21,285 nt of DNA from positions 1-21,285 of the forward strand of contig JBDREN010000192.1 in NCBI GenBank assembly GCA_043819795.1, in the 5' to 3' direction. Position numbers and translations under genes: made by a program. How positions within the stretch are numbered: the stretch's first letter is position 1; each line of letters begins with the position of its first letter. Of the stretch, positions 8,989 to 21,285 are shown in pieces. The DNA is from Elusimicrobiota bacterium. Lineage in GTDB: Bacteria > Elusimicrobiota > Elusimicrobia > UBA1565. The notes beneath the pieces are model-generated. The model ran no database searches. It worked only from the letters and a program-made list of their open reading frames with translations, and was not told where the DNA came from.

Positions 8989-9004
8989 GTTCTGCCGGGA
9001 CGCG

Positions 9005-11032
9005 CTAACGGGCATCCAGGTCGCGCAGGTAGCGCGTGATATTCGGCTGGTCGGGGTCGATCTCCAGGGATCTCCGCCAGGCCTCGCGGGCGGCTTCGGT
9101 CTTCCCCATGCCGGCGTAGGCCGTCCCGAGGTTATTGTGGGCCTTGGTGAAGAACGGGTTCAAGGCCGCCGCCTCGCGCAGATGCTTCAAGCCGTCCTCC
9201 CATCGCTTCTGTCCGACGCAGATGGCGCCCAAGTTGTTGTGAGCATGGGCATTGAGGGGGTTCTCCTCGATCTCACGGAGGAACGCCTGTTCCGCTCTTC
9301 GCGGATCGCCCTTGGCCAAGAGCTCGTTGCCCCGGTGAAAATGGGCGGTCGGGGCGGACAGGCGCTTCAGCTCGAGCATGGCGTGACCGAACCGGGGATC
9401 GTAATGAAGCGTGGAATAGAAACAGGCCGAGGCTCTTCGGTATTCCTTACGGTTCCTGAGTCCGATGCCGTACGCGAAATAGAGGTTCGCGAGGTTCTCC
9501 CGGCGACCGGCGGCCTTCTCCAGGGCGATCCCTTCTTCATAGGTCTGCCAGGCGCGTCCGGGGCGGCTCTCTATCAGGAAGTTGCCCATGTTCACGTATT
9601 CCCGAGCGTAGAGGCGCGTCTCTTCAAACAGAGTCACGTGACAGCAGATGTAGACGCAGCCGAACAGCAGGCCGCGCCAAAGTGTGCTCCGCCAACGCTT
9701 CTCGCGGACTGTTCCGAACCCATCTGCCAGAGCATAGGCGGCGAAGGGAAGGAGGAAAGGGACCACGGGCAGCCGGTACCGAGATGTGACGTAAAAAAGC
9801 ACAACAGAAAGCGCGTAGCCGCCGGCGAGCAGATACAGCAGGAGCGCCTCCCGCCATCGCCTCCAGGACGCGGCCACGCCCCATACGGCGAGGGGCAGGA
9901 GCGCTCCGAACGTGAACAGAGGCCAGCGCAGCAACGGCACGAACCGATCCCGCAAGAAATAGGTGTTGTAGTTGTCCGGCACCTCGTAGTAATTGACGAA
10001 GAGATTGATCTTCTTCCCCAGGAGCCTGAAGAAACGGCCCGGCTCCCGCCGGATGAAATCGAATCCTTTCTTGTACCAGAACCGGCCGATCTCGGAGGGC
10101 TTGAGCGGGCGCCCGACCTCCTTCTCGGCGTAGACGCGCGCGTCCCGCTCTTCGTGCTCCGGGATGGTCCGTATCATCGGCGCCGCTGCGTGGATCCCGG
10201 AGGCTTTAGGGTTGTTGCCGGCATAGAAGTTGATTCCCGCCGTGTAATTGGTCAGTACGAAGTCTCGGTCGGCCCAGTAGTTGCGCGCCGTGACGGGCGC
10301 CACCGCGAAGGCGAAGCCCAGGAGGAACAATCCGCCCAGCCGGGCGGCGGACTTGATGTCCCGCGTCCGCGCCCAGAGCCACAGGGGGATGAAGGGAACG
10401 GCCAAGAGGAAGTTGCCGCGGTTGAGGGCCGCGAGCCCCAGGCAAGCCCCGCCCGCCAGCGCCCAGCGCGCGCTCGCGGGCTCCGGGGCCCGCAGCAGGC
10501 ACAAGAGGGTGAGCGCTTCCAGGAAGACGGTCGTGCTCCCTTTGAGCAGCACGGCGTCGTAGAAGATGAACGGCTGGTAGAGCGCCGCCAGGACGGCCGT
10601 CAGCCAGCCCGCGGTCTCGCCGAACACGCGTCTGCCCACGAAATAGAGCAGCACGCAGGAGAACGAGCCGAGCAGGACCTGGATCCACTGCACGGCCCGG
10701 AGGCTGTGCCCGAACACGGAATAGACCAGACCCAGGAAGTAGGGATAAAGGGGGGATTGATAGAAGGCTCCTTTGCCGAGCCAGTCCCCCTGCGCGATGG
10801 CCCAGCCCCAGCGGTCGTAGGCCGCCGCGTCGATGTGAAGATGATCCCCGAAGGGGCTCTGGTTGAATTGGTGAAGGAAGATGAGGCGCAGGACGAGCGC
10901 GGTCAAAAATACCCCGGCCAGCCCGAACGGACGAGGCCGGTCCAGCAGCGCCTGCCGCGCCGCGGAGAGCGGGGCCAGGAAGTCCAGCGCTTGGCCTTCC
11001 GAAACCGGCGCGCGTTTCCTTTTCGGCTTCAT
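9005..11032 (-). CDS. GT-C (ArnT/PMT-like) membrane glycosyltransferase with C-terminal TPRs, paralog 2
   Basis: IDAAAY loop, YQSPLYPYFLG, many TMs, ARNY..GINFY.GNNP, RYRLP and TPR motifs AHNNLG. The ATG overlaps the upstream TGA. Confidence 0.88.
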   Translation of the reverse strand: MKPKRKRAPVSEGQALDFLAPLSAARQALLDRPRPFGLAGVFLTALVLRLIFLHQFNQSPFGDHLHIDAAAYDRWGWAIAQGDWLGKGAFYQSPLYPYFLGLVYSVFGHSLRAVQWIQVLLGSFSCVLLYFVGRRVFGETAGWLTAVLAALYQPFIFYDAVLLKGSTTVFLEALTLLCLLRAPEPASARWALAGGACLGLAALNRGNFLLAVPFIPLWLWARTRDIKSAARLGGLFLLGFAFAVAPVTARNYWADRDFVLTNYTAGINFYAGNNPKASGIHAAAPMIRTIPEHEERDARVYAEKEVGRPLKPSEIGRFWYKKGFDFIRREPGRFFRLLGKKINLFVNYYEVPDNYNTYFLRDRFVPLLRWPLFTFGALLPLAVWGVAASWRRWREALLLYLLAGGYALSVVLFYVTSRYRLPVVPFLLPFAAYALADGFGTVREKRWRSTLWRGLLFGCVYICCHVTLFEETRLYAREYVNMGNFLIESRPGRAWQTYEEGIALEKAAGRRENLANLYFAYGIGLRNRKEYRRASACFYSTLHYDPRFGHAMLELKRLSAPTAHFHRGNELLAKGDPRRAEQAFLREIEENPLNAHAHNNLGAICVGQKRWEDGLKHLREAAALNPFFTKAHNNLGTAYAGMGKTEAAREAWRRSLEIDPDQPNITRYLRDLDAR

Positions 11033-13038
11033 CGGGCTTCGAGGTCCCGCAGGTACTGCGCGATCCTTGGCTGCTCCGGGTCGATCTCCAAAGACCTCCG
11101 CCATGCCTCGCGGGCGGCTTGGGGGCGCCCCATGCTGGCCTCGGCCATCCCGATATTGTTGTGGGCTTTGGTGAAGAACGGGTTCAAGGCCGCCGCCTCC
11201 CGGAAATACGGCAAGGCCTCCGCCCAGCGTCTCCGGCTGAAGTGGATGCTCCCGAGGTTGTTGTGCGCCTCGGGATTAAAGGGGTTCTCCTCGATCTCCC
11301 GGATGAACTCACCCTCCGCCGCCCGCGGATCCCCCCGCCCCAAGAGCTCGTTGCCCCGGTGGAAATGCGCGGTCGGACGCATCAGGCGCTGCAGCTCCAG
11401 GGCCGCGAAGGCGAACTCCGGGTAGTAATGCAGCGTGGAGAAAAAGCAGGCAACGGCCCTCTTGGCCTGCCCCTGGTTGCGGAGCCCTATGCCGTAGGCG
11501 TAGTAGAGCTCCGGAAGCATGTCCTTCCGGCGGGAGGCTTTCTCCAAAGCAATCGCCTCCTCGTAGGCCTTCCAGGCCCCTTCCGGGTCCGTCCCGAGCA
11601 GGTAGTTCCCCAAAGTCACGTACTCCCGGGAGTAGGCGAACGCCGGCTCGAACATGGGGATGCGGCATGACAGGAAGGCGGCTGTCACCAGCCCGGCGCG
11701 GAACGTCAGGCCCATCCAGCGCTTCCGTCGTAGGGTCTCGAACGCCTCCACCAGGGCGTAGCCGGCGAAGGGGAGCAGGAACGGGACCACGGGCAGCCGG
11801 TACCGGGAGGCGATGTGGAAGAGGACGACGGAGAACGCGTAGACGCCGGCGAGCAGATGCAGCAGGAGCGCCTCCCGCCATCGCCTCCATGAGACGGCCA
11901 TGCCCAAGACGGCCAGGGGCATGAGCACGCCGAACGGGACCAGGGGCCAGCGCAGCAGCGGCACGAACCGGTCGCGCAGGAAGTAGATGTTGTAGTTGTC
12001 GGGCACCTCGTAGTGGTTGAAGAACAGCTTGATCTTCCGCCACGCGCGACGGAGGAAGAGGTCCGGCCGCTCGCGGATGGACCGCCAGCCCTTCGCGCGC
12101 CAGAAACGGTCGATCTCGGAGGGCATGAGCGTGCGTCCGGCCTCCTTCTCGGCGGACGCGCGCGCGTCCGCTTCCTCGTGCTCCGGGACCGTCCGGATCA
12201 GGGGCGGAGCCCAGTGGATCCCGGTGGCTCCGGGATGGTTGTCCGAGTAGAAGTTCACCCCGGCCGCGTAGGTGATGGGGACGAAGTCGCGGGCGGCCCA
12301 GTAGTTGCGCGCCGTGACGGGAGCGACCGCGAGCGCGAAGCCCAGAAGGAACGAGCCGCCCAGCCGGCCGGCGGACTTGGCGTCCCGGGTCCGCGCCCAG
12401 AGCCAGAGGGGGATGAAAGGGACGGCGAGCAGGAAGTTCCCGCGGTTGAGCGCCGCGATCCCCAGGCACGCCCCGGCCGCAAGGGCCCAGCGCGCGCGCG
12501 GAGGCTCCAGAGCGCGCAGCAGGCACAGGAGCGTCAGAGCCTCCAGGAAGATGGTCGTGCTTCCTTTCAGCAGCAGGCCGTCGTAGAAGATGAACGGCTG
12601 GTAGAGCGCCGCCAGGACGGCCGTCAGCCAGCCCGCGGCCTCGCCGAACACGCGTCTGGCCACGAAATAGAACAGCACGCAGGAGAACGACCCGATGAGG
12701 ACCTGGATCCACTGTACGGCCCGCAGGCTGTGCCCGAATACGGAATAGACGAGGCCCAGGAAGTAGGGGTAGAGGGGGGATTGATAGAAGGCTCCTTTGC
12801 CGAGCCAATCGCCCTGCGCGATGGCCCAGCCCCACCGGTCGTAGGCCGCCGCGTCGATGTGAAGATGATGCCCGAAGGGGCTTTGGTTGAACTGGTGAAG
12901 GAAGATGAGGCGCAGGACGAGAGCGGCGAGGAATATCCCCGCCAGCCCGAGCGGACGAGGCCGGTCCAGCAGCGCCCGCCGCGCCGCGGAGAGCCGCGGC
13001 AGGGCGCCCGGCTTAGCGATCTTCGGCTCAGGAGCCAT
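11029..13038 (-). CDS. GT-C (ArnT/PMT-like) membrane glycosyltransferase with C-terminal TPRs, paralog 1
   Basis: Same motif set as 9005-11032, with long identical peptide blocks. Confidence 0.88.
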   Translation of the reverse strand: MAPEPKIAKPGALPRLSAARRALLDRPRPLGLAGIFLAALVLRLIFLHQFNQSPFGHHLHIDAAAYDRWGWAIAQGDWLGKGAFYQSPLYPYFLGLVYSVFGHSLRAVQWIQVLIGSFSCVLFYFVARRVFGEAAGWLTAVLAALYQPFIFYDGLLLKGSTTIFLEALTLLCLLRALEPPRARWALAAGACLGIAALNRGNFLLAVPFIPLWLWARTRDAKSAGRLGGSFLLGFALAVAPVTARNYWAARDFVPITYAAGVNFYSDNHPGATGIHWAPPLIRTVPEHEEADARASAEKEAGRTLMPSEIDRFWRAKGWRSIRERPDLFLRRAWRKIKLFFNHYEVPDNYNIYFLRDRFVPLLRWPLVPFGVLMPLAVLGMAVSWRRWREALLLHLLAGVYAFSVVLFHIASRYRLPVVPFLLPFAGYALVEAFETLRRKRWMGLTFRAGLVTAAFLSCRIPMFEPAFAYSREYVTLGNYLLGTDPEGAWKAYEEAIALEKASRRKDMLPELYYAYGIGLRNQGQAKRAVACFFSTLHYYPEFAFAALELQRLMRPTAHFHRGNELLGRGDPRAAEGEFIREIEENPFNPEAHNNLGSIHFSRRRWAEALPYFREAAALNPFFTKAHNNIGMAEASMGRPQAAREAWRRSLEIDPEQPRIAQYLRDLEAR

Positions 13039-13059
13039 GCGGATCCTTGACGCGGCGCC

Positions 13060-13638
13060 TCAACGAGGTCTCCCCGCGTTCCAGTTCTCGAGGACGCAGG
13101 GGTAGGACACCTCGACACGACGCGCGAATCGTCCACGGAGGAAGCGGTCCAGGCGGTCCTTGTCGGGATCGAGCGCCAGCAGGGCTTCCCCGAGCCTGGG
13201 CGAGAGGAGGACGGGGTGCCCCCCTTTGCCATCGTGGACGGGGATGATGGCCTCGACGCCCGCCTCGTCGGCTTCGCGCGCGCGGGTGAGGAGGTCCCTG
13301 AAGAGGGTTCCCTCCCAGACCGGCATGTCCACGTGGTGGAGGCACCCCCACTTCGTTAGAGGAGCCGCCTTGAGGGCCGCCTGGAGGGCGTGGAGGGGGG
13401 ATGCTCCCGGATCCACCGGCACCCACCTCACCCCCGGATCGACGCCGCGGCAGCGCTCCAGCCAGGCCTCCTGGACCGTGACCGCGACGGCCCCGGGCGC
13501 GAAGAGGCCCGTCAGGAACGCGACCTGTCTGCCCAGGAGGGTGCCGTCCTCGTGGGCGATCCACGCTTTGGGTCCCCCGGCCCTCTTGCCTTTGCCGGCG
13601 GCGAGCAGATAGGCCTGAGCCTCGTCCATCGGTTTCAC
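13060..13638 (-). CDS. mocA: MocA/YgfJ-like molybdenum cofactor cytidylyltransferase (MobA-like NTP transferase)
   Basis: Motifs LLAAGKGKRAGGPKA, VDMP and GKGGHPVLL, plus association with xdhC. Start is GTG 13638 or ATG 13629. Confidence 0.75.
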   Translation of the reverse strand: MKPMDEAQAYLLAAGKGKRAGGPKAWIAHEDGTLLGRQVAFLTGLFAPGAVAVTVQEAWLERCRGVDPGVRWVPVDPGASPLHALQAALKAAPLTKWGCLHHVDMPVWEGTLFRDLLTRAREADEAGVEAIIPVHDGKGGHPVLLSPRLGEALLALDPDKDRLDRFLRGRFARRVEVSYPCVLENWNAGRPR

Positions 13639-13749
13639 TGCGATCCCTTTACAGGGTTTAGGTCCCGGCCTCTACATTGCAGTCTTCGTTCATTACGTTG
13701 TCGTCAGTCCGTCACAATCCCTTTTCAGGGTTTCGGTCCGTCCCTTCCC
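13637..13749 (-). CRISPR. Degenerate CRISPR mini-array: two 39-nt repeats (13711-13749, 13637-13675) and one 35-nt spacer (13676-13710)
   Basis: R1 GGGAAGGGACGGACCGAAACCCTGAAAAGGGATTGTGAC and R2 GTAGAGGCCGGGACCTAAACCCTGTAAAGGGATCGCAGT are 26/39 identical, with a 21/23 core. Both have a CCCT-GNRA-AGGG hairpin followed by exactly 8 nt (ATTGTGAC in R1). The spacer is GGACTGACGACAACGTAATGAACGAAGACTGCAAT (16/35 GC). The array lies directly at the end of cas6. Confidence 0.8.
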
Positions 13750-14539
13750 CGGCGAACACGCGCACCTGCCCCATGCCCATTCCGGTCTTGATGCCCACGC
13801 CGGCCGCGGACGCCAGTCCAAGGAGCCTGCGCGCCGAGTCCTTCTTGGAGGCGTCGGCCAGGCTGATCCACGCGCAGCCCACGAACCCGGGGATCTCCCC
13901 CGCTTTGAGCCGGAAAAGCTTCGTTCGTCCCCTGAACCGGACGAGGCGCAGGGCGCGGCGCCAGTCGTCGGCGGTCAGCTCCGGAAGCTGGTCCGGGGAG
14001 AAGGCGTTCCAGCGCCGGTTCAGGCTGGAGAGCACCAGGCCCGGGTCGCAGAAGGGATAATAGGCGTCCCCCATCTTGAAGGCGGTGGGCGTCCGGAAAT
14101 CCAGGCGATAGACGGAGCGCGCGGGAGCGAGAAGCGAGGGGTCCGAGTAATCGGACACGCGGTAGAGTCCGGGAGCCTTGCGTCCCGTGGGCAGGACCGC
14201 GGCGATCTCGAGCCGGCCACGACCCAGGAGCACCCCTTTTTTCTCGGCCATGTGCACGGCGAGCGACGTGGAGAGGCATCTCGTCAGCGGAGCCGAGAGC
14301 GTGCCCACGGTGAGCCGCAGGCTCTCTCCCCGCTTGAGCACGGCGCCGTCCCGGCTCGGAGACTTCCCGTGGACCCATAGCGAGAAGGGCTTGATGCCCG
14401 CCGAATGGATGGACGACGCCAGAGCCCGGTCTTCGGATTGGATGAGGCGGAAGAGCAGGCCGTGCGCGGCTTCTCCCGCATGGGCGGGGACGTCCACGCG
14501 GTCCAGGGCCTTCAGAGTGACGGAGAAGAGTCCGATCAT
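13712..14539 (-). CDS. cas6: CRISPR-associated endoribonuclease Cas6
   Basis: Motifs HGLLFRLI..IH..KPFS, FRTPTAF, SL..RWNAF, PGFVG and C-terminal G-loop GVGIKTGMGMG. The ATG overlaps the csm5 TGA. Confidence 0.92.
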   Translation of the reverse strand: MIGLFSVTLKALDRVDVPAHAGEAAHGLLFRLIQSEDRALASSIHSAGIKPFSLWVHGKSPSRDGAVLKRGESLRLTVGTLSAPLTRCLSTSLAVHMAEKKGVLLGRGRLEIAAVLPTGRKAPGLYRVSDYSDPSLLAPARSVYRLDFRTPTAFKMGDAYYPFCDPGLVLSSLNRRWNAFSPDQLPELTADDWRRALRLVRFRGRTKLFRLKAGEIPGFVGCAWISLADASKKDSARRLLGLASAAGVGIKTGMGMGQVRVFAGEGTDRNPEKGL

Positions 14540-15516
14540 GACGCGGCGGGCTTCAGATACGCCCAGCCCAGGGGCCTCACTCCCGCCTTCTTGCGCGTCC
14601 ACGGAGGGTCGGCGCAGGTTATGTTGTGAAAACCTCCGAGCCTCGATACGGAGTATTCCTTGCGGCCGAGGGCCTTCGCGGCCGCCAAGAGCGACATGGC
14701 CCACGCGCCGGAGCCCTGGCCGAGGCGGATCGGACCGGATTGGGCCGAGACATGCATGGGCTCACCCTCCGCCCGGCAGATCTCCTGGGCGTACTCCCGG
14801 GCCCAGGCCAGCATGGACTCGAAGAAGTCCCCGCGCACGGATCTCGGGACCTTGATGTCCAGGTTGAAAGTGACGCCCGGCTTGATCACCTCCATGAGCG
14901 TGTGCGCCGCCTTGAGGGGGCCCTTGCCGGGCCTGGCGTCGGGCGACCTTTCGACCCTGACGATCGCGAGCGCGAGCGTCTTGTCCGCGGGCCGTCCGTC
15001 CGTGTCGGAGACGTCCAGCCAGCGCAGGGACCCGTCCCGCTCCGGCTTCCCGCCCAGCCACGCGGCCACCCTGTCCCGGAGCTCCCTGTCGTTGGCCGGC
15101 CATTGGATCCGTCCGGTCTTCAAGAGCCCGTAGGCCACGACGCCGAGCAAGGCGCCCTTGATGGATGAGCCGGGCACGACCGTCTTACCCGCGGATCTGA
15201 ACGCTTCACTGACCGTGATCCTGTCCGGCTCTTGGCGGGCGGTCTGGTCCACGGGCAGGGTGTAGAGGATGTGCCTGCGGGCGATGGCCTCGAGCTCCTT
15301 GTGGCCGCCGAGGTGCCGGGCCTCGGGCTTGGCCTTCCCGGCCAGCGACATGAAATCGTCGAACGCGCGGCTCTCCGGCTTGAAATCCTCGTCCTGGAAC
15401 AGGCCGTCCATGTGCAGCCTATGGAACGTTCCCCTGTCCAGGAGGTATTCCATGGGCGTGATCTCCCGGCCGGAGCCGATATGGACGAACGAATGAGTCG
15501 TCAAGGTGAGCTTCAT
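14536..15516 (-). CDS. csm5: Type III-A RAMP Csm5
   Basis: Motifs VHIGSG...EY, PGSSIKGA, VSD and RLGQGSG, and position after csm4. Confidence 0.88.
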   Translation of the reverse strand: MKLTLTTHSFVHIGSGREITPMEYLLDRGTFHRLHMDGLFQDEDFKPESRAFDDFMSLAGKAKPEARHLGGHKELEAIARRHILYTLPVDQTARQEPDRITVSEAFRSAGKTVVPGSSIKGALLGVVAYGLLKTGRIQWPANDRELRDRVAAWLGGKPERDGSLRWLDVSDTDGRPADKTLALAIVRVERSPDARPGKGPLKAAHTLMEVIKPGVTFNLDIKVPRSVRGDFFESMLAWAREYAQEICRAEGEPMHVSAQSGPIRLGQGSGAWAMSLLAAAKALGRKEYSVSRLGGFHNITCADPPWTRKKAGVRPLGWAYLKPAAS

Positions 15517-16451
15517 GACTCCGGGGGGATGCGGATCGGCAGACTGAGCGCCATGCCGGCGCGAAAGACCTTGTGCGCTTTCTTGAAGGCCCCGGGCGTC
15601 ACCTCCACGAGAGAGCCGGAGACGTCATCGACTCCGGCGAGGACCGCGCCTTCGGCGGCCATGCGGACGGGCCGCCACCTCAGGGGGATTCCGGCGTCCG
15701 GCGAGTGGATGTACCCCCGGCGGTCGACCAGCCTGTAGTACCCGTCGGCCAGGCGTTCGGCCTCGGTCTGGCTTCCGGGGTAGTAAAGAGAGAGGAGGAC
15801 CCGGTGGCTCGGCTCTCGGACCTCCCGGCCGAGCTCGAGCGTCTCCCAGGCCGGATACTTGAAAAGTCCGTGACCCACGGATCGCTCCCCGCCGATGCCT
15901 TCATCCGCCAATAGGCGCATGGCCGAGAATATACGGTCCCGGACCTTCTTGTCCTCGAACCGCGCGAGGAAATAGAACCCGCCGTCCGGAGGAGGACATA
16001 TCCTGCCCACGCCGAAGAGGCCGCCCGCGCTCCGCTGCCGGCCGTCTCCCGCGCGGCCCACGCTCGCCCTGGTCGCGTGATGGAGCCAATGGTCCAGACG
16101 TCTTTTCTCCACGTGATCGCCGTTGCGAGTCTCGCCCGAAAGGACCTTTTCGAAGGAGCGCAGCGTGAGCCAGCTGCGGTTGTCGGCCGAGACGTGCCTT
16201 GGGCACGGGAAGAAGAGGTCCGCGCCTTCATAGGGAAACGCCGAGGTCAGGGCGAACGGCCTCTCGCCTTTCTCGAGCCGCCGCAAGAGGATCACGAGCG
16301 AGCCTTCCCCGTACAGGAGCCTCCAGGCGGCGAAGACGGCCGCGCAGAGGGTGTCGGACGGGATATGCCCCATGCTCTCGTCGAGCATGTCCTGGCGCTC
16401 GCCCACATGGAGGGCGCCCCGGAAGGCCAGCCGGCAGAGGTTTAGCTCCAT
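15513..16451 (-). CDS. csm4: Type III-A RAMP Csm4
   Basis: Motifs LHVGE, SDTL..A, TSAFPY, LADEGIGGERSVGHG, LLSLYYP, RRGYI and EG..GSLVEVTP. TGATG overlap with csm3. Confidence 0.92.
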   Translation of the reverse strand: MELNLCRLAFRGALHVGERQDMLDESMGHIPSDTLCAAVFAAWRLLYGEGSLVILLRRLEKGERPFALTSAFPYEGADLFFPCPRHVSADNRSWLTLRSFEKVLSGETRNGDHVEKRRLDHWLHHATRASVGRAGDGRQRSAGGLFGVGRICPPPDGGFYFLARFEDKKVRDRIFSAMRLLADEGIGGERSVGHGLFKYPAWETLELGREVREPSHRVLLSLYYPGSQTEAERLADGYYRLVDRRGYIHSPDAGIPLRWRPVRMAAEGAVLAGVDDVSGSLVEVTPGAFKKAHKVFRAGMALSLPIRIPPES

Positions 16452-17230
16452 CAAGCGAGTCTGTTGAGCACCTGCTCCATGCCGGACACGAGCTTCTGAG
16501 GGGTGTCCAGGCCCTCGTTGACGGGAGGCTTTCCCAAGCTTCCCTTCTGGTAGTCCTCGGCTGAGTTCCAGCGCAGGGCCAGCGCGCCGACCTTGACCCT
16601 GCCGTACCCGCGAGAGCCCATGCCTCCCAGGTAGTCGTCTTCAAGCAGAGACAGCGCCTTGAAGATCTTCGGCACGAGCTCCGGCTTGTCCTCATCCGAG
16701 TAGACATTGAGCACCAGGCGCAGGCCGAACCTGGCTCCCGCCGGGACCCTTTCCACCTGCCTCAAGCCGCCGGAACGCGCCTTGCCTTGGACGCGGTCTA
16801 TCGCGGTCTCCGCCTTGACCTCGGTGAGCTCCAGCTCCAGGTTGCCGGCCTCGTGCAGCTGCTTGAGCTCCGCCTCGTTCAAGAGATAGGCGTCCGAGAC
16901 CATGAGCCGGGTCAAAGAGGGCACGTTGAACTCCGCGCCGCCCGGGGCCACGCCGAAGATCCGGCAGGAGGGGCACTTCCGGTAAGATGCGGAGTCCCGG
17001 CATTCATGCTTCCCGCCTTCGAACCGGCAGTCCTCCGAGTGCTCCAGGAGGCTCCTCAGCTTGCCCTTGATGGACGAGCCGGGGACGTAGGGCTTTCCCC
17101 ACGGGTCGCGTATGACGCTCAGGTCCACGCCGCTGATCTTCAAGCCCGTCTGGGGACCGCCCACGCGGATGCCGGTCTTGGCCTCGATCTCGCCTTCGAT
17201 GATCAGCTTCCCCAATAGTCGGCACTCCAT
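16451..17230 (-). CDS. csm3: Type III-A backbone RNase Csm3
   Basis: TGIRVGG...ISGVDLSVIRD with the catalytic Asp position retained, PYVPGSSIKGKLRSLLE, His/Cys Zn cluster HEC..CPSC, ETAIDR, RQVERVPAG and DDYLGGMGSRGYG. SD GGAGGAG. Confidence 0.96.
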   Translation of the reverse strand: MECRLLGKLIIEGEIEAKTGIRVGGPQTGLKISGVDLSVIRDPWGKPYVPGSSIKGKLRSLLEHSEDCRFEGGKHECRDSASYRKCPSCRIFGVAPGGAEFNVPSLTRLMVSDAYLLNEAELKQLHEAGNLELELTEVKAETAIDRVQGKARSGGLRQVERVPAGARFGLRLVLNVYSDEDKPELVPKIFKALSLLEDDYLGGMGSRGYGRVKVGALALRWNSAEDYQKGSLGKPPVNEGLDTPQKLVSGMEQVLNRLA

Positions 17231-17231
17231 T

Positions 17232-17774
17232 TCAGTCTCCTCCGTGGTAGCGGTGGTAGGCCACGATCGCTTCGACCAGGTCCTTCAACCCCTTGAAGTA
17301 GCCCGGATTCTTAGCGGTCCTCTGGAGCGCGATATCCAGATGACGCTGGAAGAATCTCACGGCCGGGCCGTGCCTGCCCGCGGCGTAGGCCAGCTTGGGC
17401 CTCAAGAGATGCAGCTTGTTGGGACTATGCGCCTTCATCCTTTGGATCTCGTCGAGCACGGCCCTGACCTGGGAGGTGCTCATGTTCATCCGCTGCAGCT
17501 GCTTGCCGATCTTGTCCGCCACCTCCACGATCTTCTGGGCGTTGCCCCGGAGGCAGAGGTCGATGTCCTGGAAGCTTGCCGCGAGCTGCGGCTCGCCCGG
17601 CGTGCCGCCGGGCTGGGACGGTCTCCCGTATCCTCCGCCGTGCTGAGGCGGTTTGCCGCCTCCGCCGCCGTGCTGGGACGGTTTCCCGTATCCGCCGCCG
17701 TGCTGAGGCGGTCTGCCGCCCCCGCCGCCGTGGTACGGCGGCTTGCCGCCTTTTCCGTGCCTTCCATCAGGCAT
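17232..17774 (-). CDS. csm2: Type III-A small subunit Csm2 with N-terminal Gly/Pro/His repeat extension
   Basis: Motifs STSQVR, LHLLRPKLAYAAGR and EAIVAYHRYHGG. SD AGGGAGG upstream of ATG 17774, which follows the cas10 stop by 3 nt. Confidence 0.93.
   Translation of the reverse strand: MPDGRHGKGGKPPYHGGGGGRPPQHGGGYGKPSQHGGGGGKPPQHGGGYGRPSQPGGTPGEPQLAASFQDIDLCLRGNAQKIVEVADKIGKQLQRMNMSTSQVRAVLDEIQRMKAHSPNKLHLLRPKLAYAAGRHGPAVRFFQRHLDIALQRTAKNPGYFKGLKDLVEAIVAYHRYHGGD
17605..17750 (-). repeat. About five 30-bp coding tandem repeats (alternating, 60-bp higher-order unit) in csm2
   Basis: Units start at 17611, 17641, 17671, 17701 and 17731, and encode GKPPYHGGGG/GRPPQHGGGY/GKPSQHGGGG/GKPPQHGGGY/GRPSQPGGTP. 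Confidence 0.9.
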
Positions 17775-17777
17775 GGT

Positions 17778-20195
17778 TCAGCCCTCCCTGCTCGTCGAAT
17801 AGCCCGCCCATCGGGCCATGAGTCCGAGATGGGGGACCAAGCCCGTGTCGGACGGCATCACGGTCTTCCGTAAAGCCTCCAGCTGGTGTTTGCGCTTCCT
17901 GTTCCGCTCTTTCATTCCGGCGAAAGCGTAGACCAGGCGCCAGATGCGGAATACCTCGGCCTGGCCGTCCTGGACCTTGAGCCTTTCATGCTCGGCCCGT
18001 CCGAGCGCCGTCAGAAGCGACCTCGGCACGGGGTCCTGTCCGTCCTCGGGCGCGACAAGCGCCTCCATGGCACGGGACACTTCCCGGCATTCGGCCAGCT
18101 CGTCCCAGGATAAGACCTCTTCCAGAAACGAGACCGCGTCCTTGCCTTCCCGCGCCTTGGCTTTCTCGAGAGCCTCGCACGCGGCCAGGGCCGCGATCCT
18201 GACGGGGAAACCCGTCGTCGGCGCCAGGAAGATGCCGGCAGAGAGCGTGAGCCGGCCGCTCGTGAGATCGCGGAGATCCTGCCTGAGCCTCGCGGCGATG
18301 ACGGGCAAGTCGCTCCAAGGGCCTAGCAGGAAGGCGTCGTCGCCGCCGGAATAGACCACGTGGGCGTGAGGAAACTCGCTCCAGAGCAGGTATTCGATCC
18401 TGGCCGTGAAGAACCAGTGGATGAGCGCGCTCAAGGTGGCGAAGCGGGAGATGGACGGACGCTCGATGCCTCGCTTGAGAGAGCTTTCCAGGTCGTCCAC
18501 GTCCAGCTTCAAGGCGCCCCATTTCTTGACCCCTTGGGCGCGGGCCGCGGTCTTGTCCAGGCTCAGCACGCCCCGATGGTCGTCGCGCGGCGCGTATCGG
18601 GCTATGAGCGCGGCCGGCCCGACCCAGTCCTCCCGGAAGCCGGCCTGGTTCACGGCCGTCTCGCCGCCGCTCAAGTCCAGCTCAAGGCCGAGCTTCTTGA
18701 GAGAACCGGCGAGCCCCGGGGCGGGAGTCCCGGAGCCCCTTGACGCGACGGGCCGGATGGAGATCGAGTCGGCTCCGTTGAGGGCCGAGGCCGCTTTTTC
18801 GAAGCCGGAGCACAGGACGCACTCCTGGCGAGGGTCGCCCGTGTCGGAGCCGCAGACGCGGCAGGGCCGGACTTTCTCTTCCACATCGTCCGGGCCGAGC
18901 AGCACCCTCCGGCGCCTGAAGTCCCTCAGGAGGGCCGAGCCCATCCTGGCCTTCTCGCGCGCCATGGGCGGGCCGAGGCGGCCCAGAGGCCCCTTGAAAG
19001 CGTCGCCGATGAATTCCGCGGCTTTTACGGGGGTCCAGGCCAGGCTGACTCCCAGGCGGTCGCGGTGCAGGCGCATGAGCGAGGTCTCGACCTCGTCGCG
19101 CGCGCGCTCCAGGGTCTCCCCGACGCCCGCGCTCCACGGGGCCAGGAGCATGAAATGCCCGCCGCCCATGAAGAGCACGTTCACGCAAGGCAGCGGCGGA
19201 TCGAATGAGCGAAGCACCCTTTCGGCCGCGGCCATGCAGAGCATGTCCAGATAGAAAGACCGGCCGCGAAGCCCCTTTATCGCGCCCTCGCCGCCCACCG
19301 AGAAGAGGAAGTCCTGGATGCCGGAAAGATCGCCTTTCACCAGGGCGGCCACCTCGACGGCCGTCTGGGTCCCGACAGCGGGCCTGCGGCGCGAAGGGAT
19401 GTGGTCGATGATGTCGTCGAGCTCCCCGGTGGAGAAGCCCCCGTCCAGGAGGCATGCGGCGAGCGCGGCCGTGAGGCGGAGATGGTGGTAGAGCGATACG
19501 TCGGGCATGTCGATGGCCGAGGAAGGCACGAAAAGCGCGTGCCGCTCGAGGGCTCGTAGAAGCGAGCGGGTGAGGAGGTCGAAGTCCCGGGAGACCGAAG
19601 GCGCCCGGGCCAGCGCTTCCAGGTCGGCCTTCAATCCGCTCCAGAGCACGCCGTAGCTCTCCTTCCCCGCCAGGGATTTCTCCTTGGAGTCCGCGGGCCA
19701 ATGCCGGGCCGGATCGAACTGCATGGCCATGAGCGGGAAGAAGGCCGGCTGAAGCTCGGCCGCGTCCTTGAACAGCGCGAAGGGGGAAACGAGCGGCTCG
19801 GTGCGGGACTCTCCCGGCGGGTCCTCCTCGGGCCTTTCCCTCCTTTCGCCCGAAGCCAGCCAGTCGGCCAGGACCAGGCACCGCACCAGCCGCCGGTCGC
19901 CTTCGGCCTCGCCGCAATTGTGGTGCCAGGCCGCCAAGTCCGCGGCGGCGGGGAAGCTCGACCCGAAGGCCGTCCGGATGAGGTGCTCGGTCCAGAGCGC
20001 GTGGCGGTGGGTCGGGTGGCGGCCCGCGGGGTCCCGGGGACAGAAAAGGGACTCCCGCCCGCTCGCCGAGGGATCGAGGGGGGCCGCTGCCCGCTGCCCG
20101 ATCTTCCCGGCGTCGTGCAGAAGCGCCGCCAGGATCAGGGAGTCCCGGTCTCGGGGCGCGGACGGCGCCGAGGCATCGCCGGACTGTTCGCTCAC
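17778..20195 (-). CDS. cas10: Type III-A Cas10/Csm1 with HD nuclease and Palm cyclase domains
   Basis: HD motifs ALLHDAGK, WHH and ADWLASGER. Palm1 motifs GDLSGIQDFLF, LRGRSFYL and GGGHF. Zn finger CRVC..CVLC. Palm2 motifs LKLDVDDL and YSGGDD. The GTG start overlaps the xdhC TGA. Confidence 0.97.
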   Translation of the reverse strand: MSEQSGDASAPSAPRDRDSLILAALLHDAGKIGQRAAAPLDPSASGRESLFCPRDPAGRHPTHRHALWTEHLIRTAFGSSFPAAADLAAWHHNCGEAEGDRRLVRCLVLADWLASGERRERPEEDPPGESRTEPLVSPFALFKDAAELQPAFFPLMAMQFDPARHWPADSKEKSLAGKESYGVLWSGLKADLEALARAPSVSRDFDLLTRSLLRALERHALFVPSSAIDMPDVSLYHHLRLTAALAACLLDGGFSTGELDDIIDHIPSRRRPAVGTQTAVEVAALVKGDLSGIQDFLFSVGGEGAIKGLRGRSFYLDMLCMAAAERVLRSFDPPLPCVNVLFMGGGHFMLLAPWSAGVGETLERARDEVETSLMRLHRDRLGVSLAWTPVKAAEFIGDAFKGPLGRLGPPMAREKARMGSALLRDFRRRRVLLGPDDVEEKVRPCRVCGSDTGDPRQECVLCSGFEKAASALNGADSISIRPVASRGSGTPAPGLAGSLKKLGLELDLSGGETAVNQAGFREDWVGPAALIARYAPRDDHRGVLSLDKTAARAQGVKKWGALKLDVDDLESSLKRGIERPSISRFATLSALIHWFFTARIEYLLWSEFPHAHVVYSGGDDAFLLGPWSDLPVIAARLRQDLRDLTSGRLTLSAGIFLAPTTGFPVRIAALAACEALEKAKAREGKDAVSFLEEVLSWDELAECREVSRAMEALVAPEDGQDPVPRSLLTALGRAEHERLKVQDGQAEVFRIWRLVYAFAGMKERNRKRKHQLEALRKTVMPSDTGLVPHLGLMARWAGYSTSREG

Positions 20196-21010
20196 CGTCT
20201 CCCCGCCGCGGGCGCGATGGGCTCGGCGGTCGTCCGAAGGCCCCATTCCTGAAGGAGCTCCGCGGCGACCGCCACCGCGATGATCTTCGGATCCTTGCTG
20301 GGCAAGGGCAGGCCGATGGGGCAGTGCATCTTCTCGTCCCAAAGCCGGTCCCAGTCCTCCGGCCCTTCGGAGAGCTCTTTGAGCTTGGCGCGGAAGGTCC
20401 GGCTCTTGTTCTGGGAGCCGATCACCCCGAGATAGCCCACCGGCTGCTTGAGGAAATGCCTGGCGAGCGGGAAATCCAGCTTATGGTCGTGGGTGAAGAC
20501 GCAGACGGCGTCGTCGGCGGTCCACCGGCGGGCCTCCGCGTATTCCACGGGGTCCACGCAGTGAGGCTCGACGTCGGCGGGCAGGCCCTCGCGGGAGGCC
20601 CACTCGGGCCGCTGGTCGATCACATGCACGTCGAACGGCATGCCGGAGAGGACCTGGGCCGTCGCGCGGCCGACGTGGCCTCCGCCGAAGAGATGGACGG
20701 CCTTGCGCCGCGGCACCGGCTCGAAGAAGACCTCCACGCGCCCCCCGCAGACCTGGCCTTCCTCCTTGGTGAGGTCGTAGTCCTCGATGTGCGGCTTGCC
20801 GTCCGCGTCTTTGAGCAGCTCCCGGGCGTGCTCCAGGACCTTCTTCTCGAGCGCCCCGCCGCCCACCGTCCCGTAGAACCGGTCCGATGTCGCCCACATG
20901 CGCGCGCCGACCCGCTGGGGCGCGCTTCCGGCGATCCTGACGACCGTGCACATCACCGCCGGGCGCGGCAGGTCCTTGTCGAAATCCCCGATGGTCTTGG
21001 AAGTCTCCAT
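20192..21010 (-). CDS. xdhC: XdhC/CoxI-family xanthine dehydrogenase accessory (Moco maturation) protein
   Basis: Motifs GSAPQRVGARM, GTVGGGALE, QVCGG, LFGGGHVG, THDHKLD, YLGVIGS, CPIGL and KDPKIIAVAVAAELL. SD GGGAGG. Confidence 0.93.
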   Translation of the reverse strand: METSKTIGDFDKDLPRPAVMCTVVRIAGSAPQRVGARMWATSDRFYGTVGGGALEKKVLEHARELLKDADGKPHIEDYDLTKEEGQVCGGRVEVFFEPVPRRKAVHLFGGGHVGRATAQVLSGMPFDVHVIDQRPEWASREGLPADVEPHCVDPVEYAEARRWTADDAVCVFTHDHKLDFPLARHFLKQPVGYLGVIGSQNKSRTFRAKLKELSEGPEDWDRLWDEKMHCPIGLPLPSKDPKIIAVAVAAELLQEWGLRTTAEPIAPAAGRR

Positions 21011-21014
21011 GCGG

Positions 21015-21092
21015 TCAACCTCCCACGATCAGGCCGAGCATGAGGAGCAGCGCCCCGGCGTTAAGCATCGGCAGGTCGGGCATCGCGCTCAT
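21015..21092 (-). CDS. Candidate 22-25 aa hydrophobic peptide MSAMPDLPMLNAGALLLMLGLIVGG
   Basis: Open frame from ATG 21092 (or 21083) to TGA 21015-21017. Its last codons form the xdhC SD. Confidence 0.35.
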   Translation of the reverse strand: MSAMPDLPMLNAGALLLMLGLIVGG

Positions 21093-21101
21093 TGTACTAT
21101 A
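21091..21101 (-). promoter_or_regulatory. Putative -10 element(s) for the xdhC-csm-mocA operon
   Basis: Overlapping TATAGT/TACAAT in the only AT-rich patch upstream of xdhC. No convincing -35. Confidence 0.4.
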
Positions 21102-21140
21102 AACCCGCCGCCGCCCGTCGCCGACAGGCCAACGGAGGGG

Positions 21141-21285
21141 GCCGCCGGCATCGCCCCCCGACGTAGGCGGCCCCCCGTGGGGGGGCCGCCGGCAACGCCC
21201 CCCGACATGGGCGGCCCCCCGTGGGGGGGCCGCCGGCTACGACATCGCCCCCCGATGTGGGCAGCCCCCCGTGGGGGGGCCGCCG
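21141..21285. repeat. GC-rich tandem palindromic repeats (REP/BIME-like), 44-44-50 bp period, truncated by the window end
   Basis: GCCGCCG recurs at 21141, 21185, 21229 and 21279. Each unit holds GGCGGCCCCCC-GTG-GGGGGGCCGCC (11-bp stem; one mismatch in the third copy). Confidence 0.85.

Follow-up and report, generated by a model that had tools for sequence, protein, structure and literature searches.

The question raised by this locus is whether a CRISPR repeat can form the end of the gene for the nuclease that is expected to process it, and what this would mean for both the guide and the message. In the window (the whole stretch analysed here, 21,285 nt of an Elusimicrobiota bacterium contig), the cas6 frame on the minus strand (14539-13712) ends in G-E-G-T-D-R-N-P-E-K-G-L-stop, and its last 12 codons are a CRISPR repeat (13711-13747) starting 9 nt past the codon of V260. 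The stem CCCT-GAAA-AGGG (13730-13719) is followed by the handle ATTGTGAC (13718-13711), and the TGA of cas6 lies within this handle, beyond the point (13719/13718) at which Cas6 is predicted to cut. The initial annotation had placed a first CRISPR repeat inside the cas6 coding sequence, which the frame, the stem and a second copy 74 nt downstream confirmed, and the cas6 stop inside the 8-nt crRNA handle, which the TGA at 13714-13712 after the stem bears out. It is indeed the first repeat, yet the first of two only.

The sequence at the cas6 end is a real CRISPR repeat. Repeats 1 and 2 are identical at 25 of 37 positions, with a local score of 44; across 20,000 windows drawn at random from the genome, the highest score was 35. 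The array repeat of another genome of the same order (G036) matches 26 of 37 bases and has the same type of stem and handle. Rfam CRISPR-DR56 aligned over its full length (1-37/37) at 13747-13711, with 18.7 bits against a threshold of 35, and in the Rfam scan of the window every family stayed below its gathering score. Given the end-to-end DR56 alignment and the match to the G036 array, the repeat is most likely 37 nt long (13711-13747) rather than the 39 nt first assigned to it (13711-13749), with 13749 as a possible alternative start. Folded in context, both stems were predicted to form (probability 0.73-0.99), that of repeat 1 with 0.85-0.99 in contexts of 60-200 nt, although the fold of the isolated 39-mer was no more stable than that of its shuffles (z -0.53).

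The handle of repeat 2 (13632-13644) can be read, in a gapped alignment, as a common handle type split by 5 extra bases. The 3′ stem arm of this repeat was also considered as the ribosome-binding site of a mocA-like gene starting at GTG 13638. This candidate was weakened by the homologs, which favour ATG 13629: it fits 42 of 118 homolog N-termini, and the GTG fits 2 of 118.

Table 1. Coordinates of the cas cassette, its array and the adjoining host genes in the window.
Feature	Position	Strand	Remarks
mocA-like nucleotidyltransferase gene of the host, flanking the insertion downstream	13060..13629	-	ATG 13629 favoured over GTG 13638
Repeat 2, degenerate	13637..13673	-	stem CCCT-GTAA-AGGG 13656-13645 kept; handle diverged or split by 5 bases
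Single spacer, 37 nt	13674..13710	-	46% GC vs genome 67%
Repeat 1, 37 nt	13711..13747	-	codes Cas6 residues E264-L275 + stop; stem 13730-13719; 8-nt handle 13718-13711
cas6 stop TGA in 5′ handle	13712..13714	-	
TGA in stem, other frame (...D-G-P-K-P-stop)	13725..13727	-	frame matching C-terminus of nearest homologs
cas6, 275 aa, TtCas6A/B-like	13712..14539	-	both histidines (H26, H45) retained; disorder predicted for residues 264-275
csm5	14536..15516	-	
csm4	15513..16454	-	
csm3	16451..17230	-	D36 invariant in 119/119 homologs
csm2, repetitive N-terminal extension	17232..17774	-	
cas10/csm1	17778..20195	-	HD (residue 27) and GGDD (617) present; start overlaps xdhC stop
xdhC, host gene upstream of the insertion	20192..21010	-	

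At the level of gene content, the order on the minus strand is xdhC, cas10, csm2, csm3, csm4, csm5, cas6, repeat-spacer-repeat and the mocA-like gene. The genes that define type III-A (cas10 with csm2, csm3, csm4 and csm5) were all identified by NCBIfam, Pfam and PADLOC matches, and Csm5 and Cas6 scored slightly below the NCBIfam cut-offs. The six cas genes (6.5 kb) contain no frameshift or internal stop, and catalytic motifs are present in Cas10 (HD and GGDD), Csm3 (Asp; D36, which we take to be the catalytic residue) and Cas6 (His). From xdhC to cas6, neighbouring genes overlap or are separated by few bases. The GC3 of the cassette (0.83-0.89) is similar to that of host genes (0.83-0.91), which suggests long residence. 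The N-terminal extension of Csm2 has about 75 residues and contains 30-nt repeats (17604-17753) coding for Gly/His/Pro-rich units.

To place the insertion, we compared relatives of the family, 14 of 16 of which had a mocA match. The xdhC gene was directly upstream in nine of them (overlapping in seven, within about 60 nt in two), about 0.9 kb away in one and absent from the fetched flank in four; cas6 was beside mocA in none of the 14. Since xdhC and mocA are contiguous in 9 of these 14 relatives and none has cas6 there, the cassette was inserted at the xdhC-mocA junction. The stop/start overlap of xdhC now involves the start of cas10. Csm3 was detected in none of 100 other genomes of the order.

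Several components of an adaptive type III-A locus, which would carry cas1/cas2 and a leader, were not detected: cas1 and cas2 were not found in this 90%-complete assembly with working controls, nor was a leader. A search of three families against the same 90%-complete assembly, in which the Csm6 control stayed silent, gave no nuclease domain of Csm6, Card1 or Csx1. Even with 6 mismatches allowed, the repeat core had no further copy in the genome, and a strict array finder gave 37 two-copy candidates, 12 of which were inspected and resemble coding or tandem repeats rather than arrays. The repeat-spacer-repeat unit is the sole array identified in this genome. A crude consensus test for sigma70-like promoters gave no site in cas6 and one in 12900-21285, at 15955, which is at chance level (1 vs 0.4 +/- 0.6).

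Elsewhere in the window, three 46-nt GC-rich palindromic repeats lie at the contig end (21146-21285), and an AT-rich patch downstream of them, near 21100, may be the operon promoter. Genes for a PMT_2 glycosyltransferase and a TPR protein are tandem duplicated at 9005-13038 (77-82% identical over 300-nt blocks). A superfamily 1 helicase with a hydrophobic, low-complexity N-terminus is encoded at 565-2964 (PADLOC MkoA, E 1e-88).

For the spacer, searches of viral contigs (exact 23-mer), phages and plasmids gave no target. In the genome, the best match was 25/37, compared with 23-25 for 25 shuffles, and the longest complement to the spacer within 9000-21285 was 9 nt. A foreign RNA is our guess for the target.

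Regarding the nuclease, TtCas6B and TtCas6A (PDB 4c98, 4c8y) come closest among the solved structures. Residues H26 and H45 align to His23 and His42 of TtCas6B, and H45 is conserved in 223 of 235 Cas6 homologs; the position of TtCas6B Tyr256 is Met254 here, as Met is in 137 of 235 homologs. In the structure model (from a 9-sequence alignment), the folded part stops around residue 262, and the residues encoded by the repeat (264-275), with pLDDT <50, make up a tail predicted to be unstructured. According to the available text of PMC3902920, TtCas6A/B recognise a 4-bp stem, leave an 8-nt handle and retain the product; multiple turnover is described for Thermus Cas6 enzymes in the accessible part of PMC12102369.

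The initial annotation had further deduced that a cut at 13719/13718 would leave the cas6 mRNA without a stop. The geometry holds for this predicted cut site, and the 3′ end would fall two bases into the G274 codon; the 74-nt intermediate it expected (13718-13645) is also arithmetically correct. The genome encodes SmpB and a tmRNA (G000:C209:30828-31183) that scored over the Rfam cut-off, unlike in ARAGORN, which did not report it. Two sequencing runs, each with a small share of the organism and available as contigs only, gave a DNA contig that matches cas6 14068-14254 exactly and an RNA-library contig that matches csm5 14803-14959 with one difference; both end short of the repeat.

The overlap may be older than this genome. 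The nearest Cas6 homologs (P0002, P0003 and P0089) are 53-59% identical to the Cas6 described here and 77-90% to each other, and form one lineage; an exhaustive search gave no Cas6 between these three and the level of about 30-38% identity. P0002 is probably part of a sister type III-A module. All three end in Q-V-R-V-A-S-A-[RK]-Q-P-R-P-stop, and repeat 1 read in the other frame gives R-D-G-P-K-P-stop, with its TGA (13727-13725) in the stem, 6 nt upstream of the cut. Among 227 Cas6 tails (those with a recognisable G-loop out of 236 Cas6 proteins), a P-[KR]-P or P-x-P C-terminus occurs in these three only, a match of three residues plus the stop within one lineage, made post hoc and on peptides only. 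For comparison, P-[KR]-P ends 2 of 1,962 long ORFs of the host, and P-x-P 14 of 1,962. When the last six residues were compared, the three tails were outside the top 15 of 227. A tail of at least 18 residues past the G-loop was present in 39 of 223 homologs, making length alone unremarkable.

Since the tails of these homologs (P-[RK]-P-stop) correspond to the other frame of the repeat, the fusion of cas6 and repeat is probably ancestral, older than the split from the nearest homologs. The non-stop geometry, on the other hand, is probably not. If this reading of the peptides is right, the fusion has persisted over about 46% protein divergence, and the cut message of the sister lineage would retain its stop. 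The initial annotation had suggested looking for the same overlap in orthologs, and had named orthologs stopping directly past the G-loop as the sign of a recent accident. The nearest homologs have a 12-residue tail instead, and in them the overlap looks conserved, while the non-stop geometry does not. With the overlap, the competition of terminating ribosomes with Cas6 would be conserved too.

Beyond this lineage, the arrangement appears to be rare. We surveyed 100 distinct complete cas6 ends from the host's phylum and four other groups, left from 121 matches after dropping 13 without a G-loop match, 7 duplicates and 1 open end; these were the best-scoring loci, mostly with 1.5-kb flanks. In none of the 100 did a stem with its handle occur anywhere from the G-loop to 60 nt beyond the stop, and the window itself was detected as a control; the handle list comprised 15 motifs, and other repeat families could escape it. 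An array-like repeat lay downstream in 12 of the 100, the nearest 77 nt and the other 11 at least 170 nt past the stop.

Locus scans of genome and metagenome contigs gave distant Cas6 only (20-36% identity; 19 and 6 loci), with no evident repeat at the stop, and searches of 61 and 401 related genomes gave Cas6 only in G036 (38-40%), in G141 and as one weak fragment. With a tolerance of 2 mismatches, none of 400 other genomes contained the repeat core, and it was also missing from viral contigs. Viral contigs also held no relatives of P0089 (Cas6) or P0239 (Csm3), and all plasmid matches were <60% identical. In G036 (C48, about 12568-15300; L022), a 38%-identical Cas6 is followed by a cas1-like gene, judged by eye, and then by an array of the same family without cas6 overlap. 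The PF10040 matches in the host's phylum (L061-L081) were mostly frames of about 320 aa that lack the usual G-loop pattern and may represent a separate Cas6-like family.

Taken together, we favour, with a probability of about 0.5, a leaderless single-guide array that is processed from the operon mRNA, so that Cas6 cuts the message it is translated from; on this view the overlap dates far back, and the loss of the stop on cutting is a by-product particular to this lineage. A type III-A cassette without adaptation genes, with one spacer and two repeats joined to the end of cas6, sits inside the host xdhC-mocA operon. Cuts by Cas6 at 13719/13718 and 13645/13644 would release a 74-nt precursor for Csm. 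Because the guide would be cut from the operon mRNA, Cas6 would sever its own message, and the same excision would sever that of the upstream cas genes; each transcript could yield one guide at most. Translation of the last cas6 codons and binding of Cas6 to the stem would be mutually exclusive. In the homologs, the stop would lie in the stem, upstream of the cut. The linker between Cas6 fold and repeat would be 5 nt longer here than in them, which would move the stop into the handle and make the cut message non-stop. This non-stop, tmRNA-bound fate is probably a tolerated by-product. We infer co-transcription, cutting, the DNA layout of the homologs and any effects on Cas levels. In support, both stems are intact and drift is confined to parts that would not be needed (the 5′ end of repeat 1 and the handle of repeat 2), although degenerate ends are also expected from neutral decay of a terminal repeat.

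The main rival is a decaying remnant, in which a deletion took the original stop of cas6 together with cas1/cas2, the leader and the greater part of an array, so that cas6 reads to the next stop and the overlap is unselected. The losses it predicts fit the failure to find cas1, cas2, a second array, a signalling nuclease or a spacer target, as well as the absence of the module from the 100 other genomes of the order. Six intact genes over 6.5 kb and a host-like GC3 (0.83-0.89) that points to long residence speak against such decay, and so do two perfect stems and homologs, about 54% identical, that appear to end in the same repeat. The survey does lend it weight, with 11 of 12 downstream array-like repeats elsewhere starting at least 170 nt past the cas6 stop, and so does the published verdict, in the available text of 10.1101/2023.03.03.530964, that type III mini-arrays are degraded and non-functional. 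We regard this remnant as possible but doubtful; if it is one, the locus merely illustrates array erosion.

Two other readings differ from the favoured one in where they put selection or transcription. The initial annotation had taken the stop in the handle for built-in negative feedback: non-stop mRNA and tmRNA tagging would limit Cas6 and, via 3′ decay, the upstream cas genes. In the sole related lineage the stop apparently precedes the cut, and none of the 100 other cas6 ends has a repeat overlap, which makes selection for this outcome improbable even though the geometry holds and tmRNA and SmpB are in the genome. There is a precedent, in the available text of PMC10107115, in the RNase III cut within the arfA ORF and in trans-translation that destabilises the upstream zntR cistron. 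If Cas6 were held on the upstream product, as described for TtCas6A/B (PMC3902920, in part), the ribosome may not reach the cut end; the accessible part of PMC12102369, however, reports multiple turnover. Very improbable, in our view, is an ordinary short array with its own promoter in cas6, or a longer one collapsed in assembly, with the guide made from a separate transcript and cutting of cas6 mRNA a minor matter. The assembly is split into 241 contigs, array regions frequently assemble badly and the promoter scan was a crude consensus test; on the other side, that scan found no promoter-like site in cas6, and a collapse might conceal spacers without giving rise to a junction of cas6 and repeat.

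The anatomy itself is real and rare, with a putative function. It resembles type III-A systems with a TtCas6A/B-like Cas6 (PMC3902920, available text) in having cas10, csm2-5 and cas6, a 37-nt repeat, a 4-bp stem and an 8-nt handle. A repeat-spacer array with a Cas6-type stem and 8-nt handle is likewise present, with an Rfam score below the gathering threshold. It differs in that no cas1/cas2, leader or signalling nuclease was found, in having one spacer and a repeat inside the cas6 coding sequence, and in Met254 in place of TtCas6B Tyr256.

CreA/CreR mini-arrays, as far as the available text of 10.1101/2023.03.03.530964 and 10.1101/2023.03.10.532045 describes them, also have two repeats and one spacer, with the upstream repeat better kept and the downstream one degraded. 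They are intergenic, belong to types I and V-A and match a promoter partially, with a PAM; here the system is type III, the unit lies inside a coding sequence and local complement is at most 9 nt. Partial complementarity of the spacer to a cas or toxin promoter or transcript, which marks these elements, was not found (25/37 vs 23-25 for shuffles; antisense 9 nt), nor was an intergenic unit with its own promoter, given the overlap with cas6 and no promoter-like site nearby. The mini-array survey limited its candidates to repeats outside ORFs and noted a depletion of repeat-like sequence in cas genes (10.1101/2023.03.03.530964, available text). The same text judged type III mini-arrays as degraded and non-functional, and its supplements may list type III cases; in the accessible text of the CreR preprint (10.1101/2023.03.10.532045), 'type III' does not occur. 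If true, the favoured reading would make this locus a candidate functional member of a class that the published survey dismissed.

The arfA type of non-stop regulation (PMC10107115 and PMC3985003, with lacI as cited there; both in part) is similar in that cleavage of a stem within the 3′ part of an ORF yields a non-stop mRNA that tmRNA deals with. The corresponding elements here are a cut, predicted by homology, upstream of the stop and the presence of tmRNA and SmpB. In arfA, according to these texts, the cutter is RNase III and not the gene's own product, and regulation was shown experimentally; here cutting and tagging are predicted.

The closest likeness in design is GENO, the engineered autoregulation of Cas13d (PMC9809062, available text), where a pre-crRNA is placed in the nuclease's own mRNA and guide excision cuts that mRNA. 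GENO is synthetic, mammalian and UTR-placed, with a single-protein effector and a repeat without a stop codon, and here the repeat lies in a natural cas6 coding sequence. Our literature search, with most subscription papers outside its scope, brought up no description of a repeat located within cas6 or of cas6 mRNA being cleaved by its product. We could speculate, though we find it unlikely, on a natural counterpart of GENO: a small fixed-guide type III-A clade with its only repeat-spacer unit fused to the cas6 stop, in which each guide ends one cas mRNA and terminating ribosomes gate processing. Csm output would then be tied to guide supply; at this locus the loop would be made sharper by tmRNA, and mocA, farther downstream, would be uncoupled by the second cut. 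The two natural stop positions, in the stem and in the handle, would offer a test of whether translation termination gates crRNA processing. Should the favoured reading be true, this locus would provide a natural CRISPR processing nuclease that cuts its own coding sequence, a design that we otherwise encountered only as the engineered GENO.
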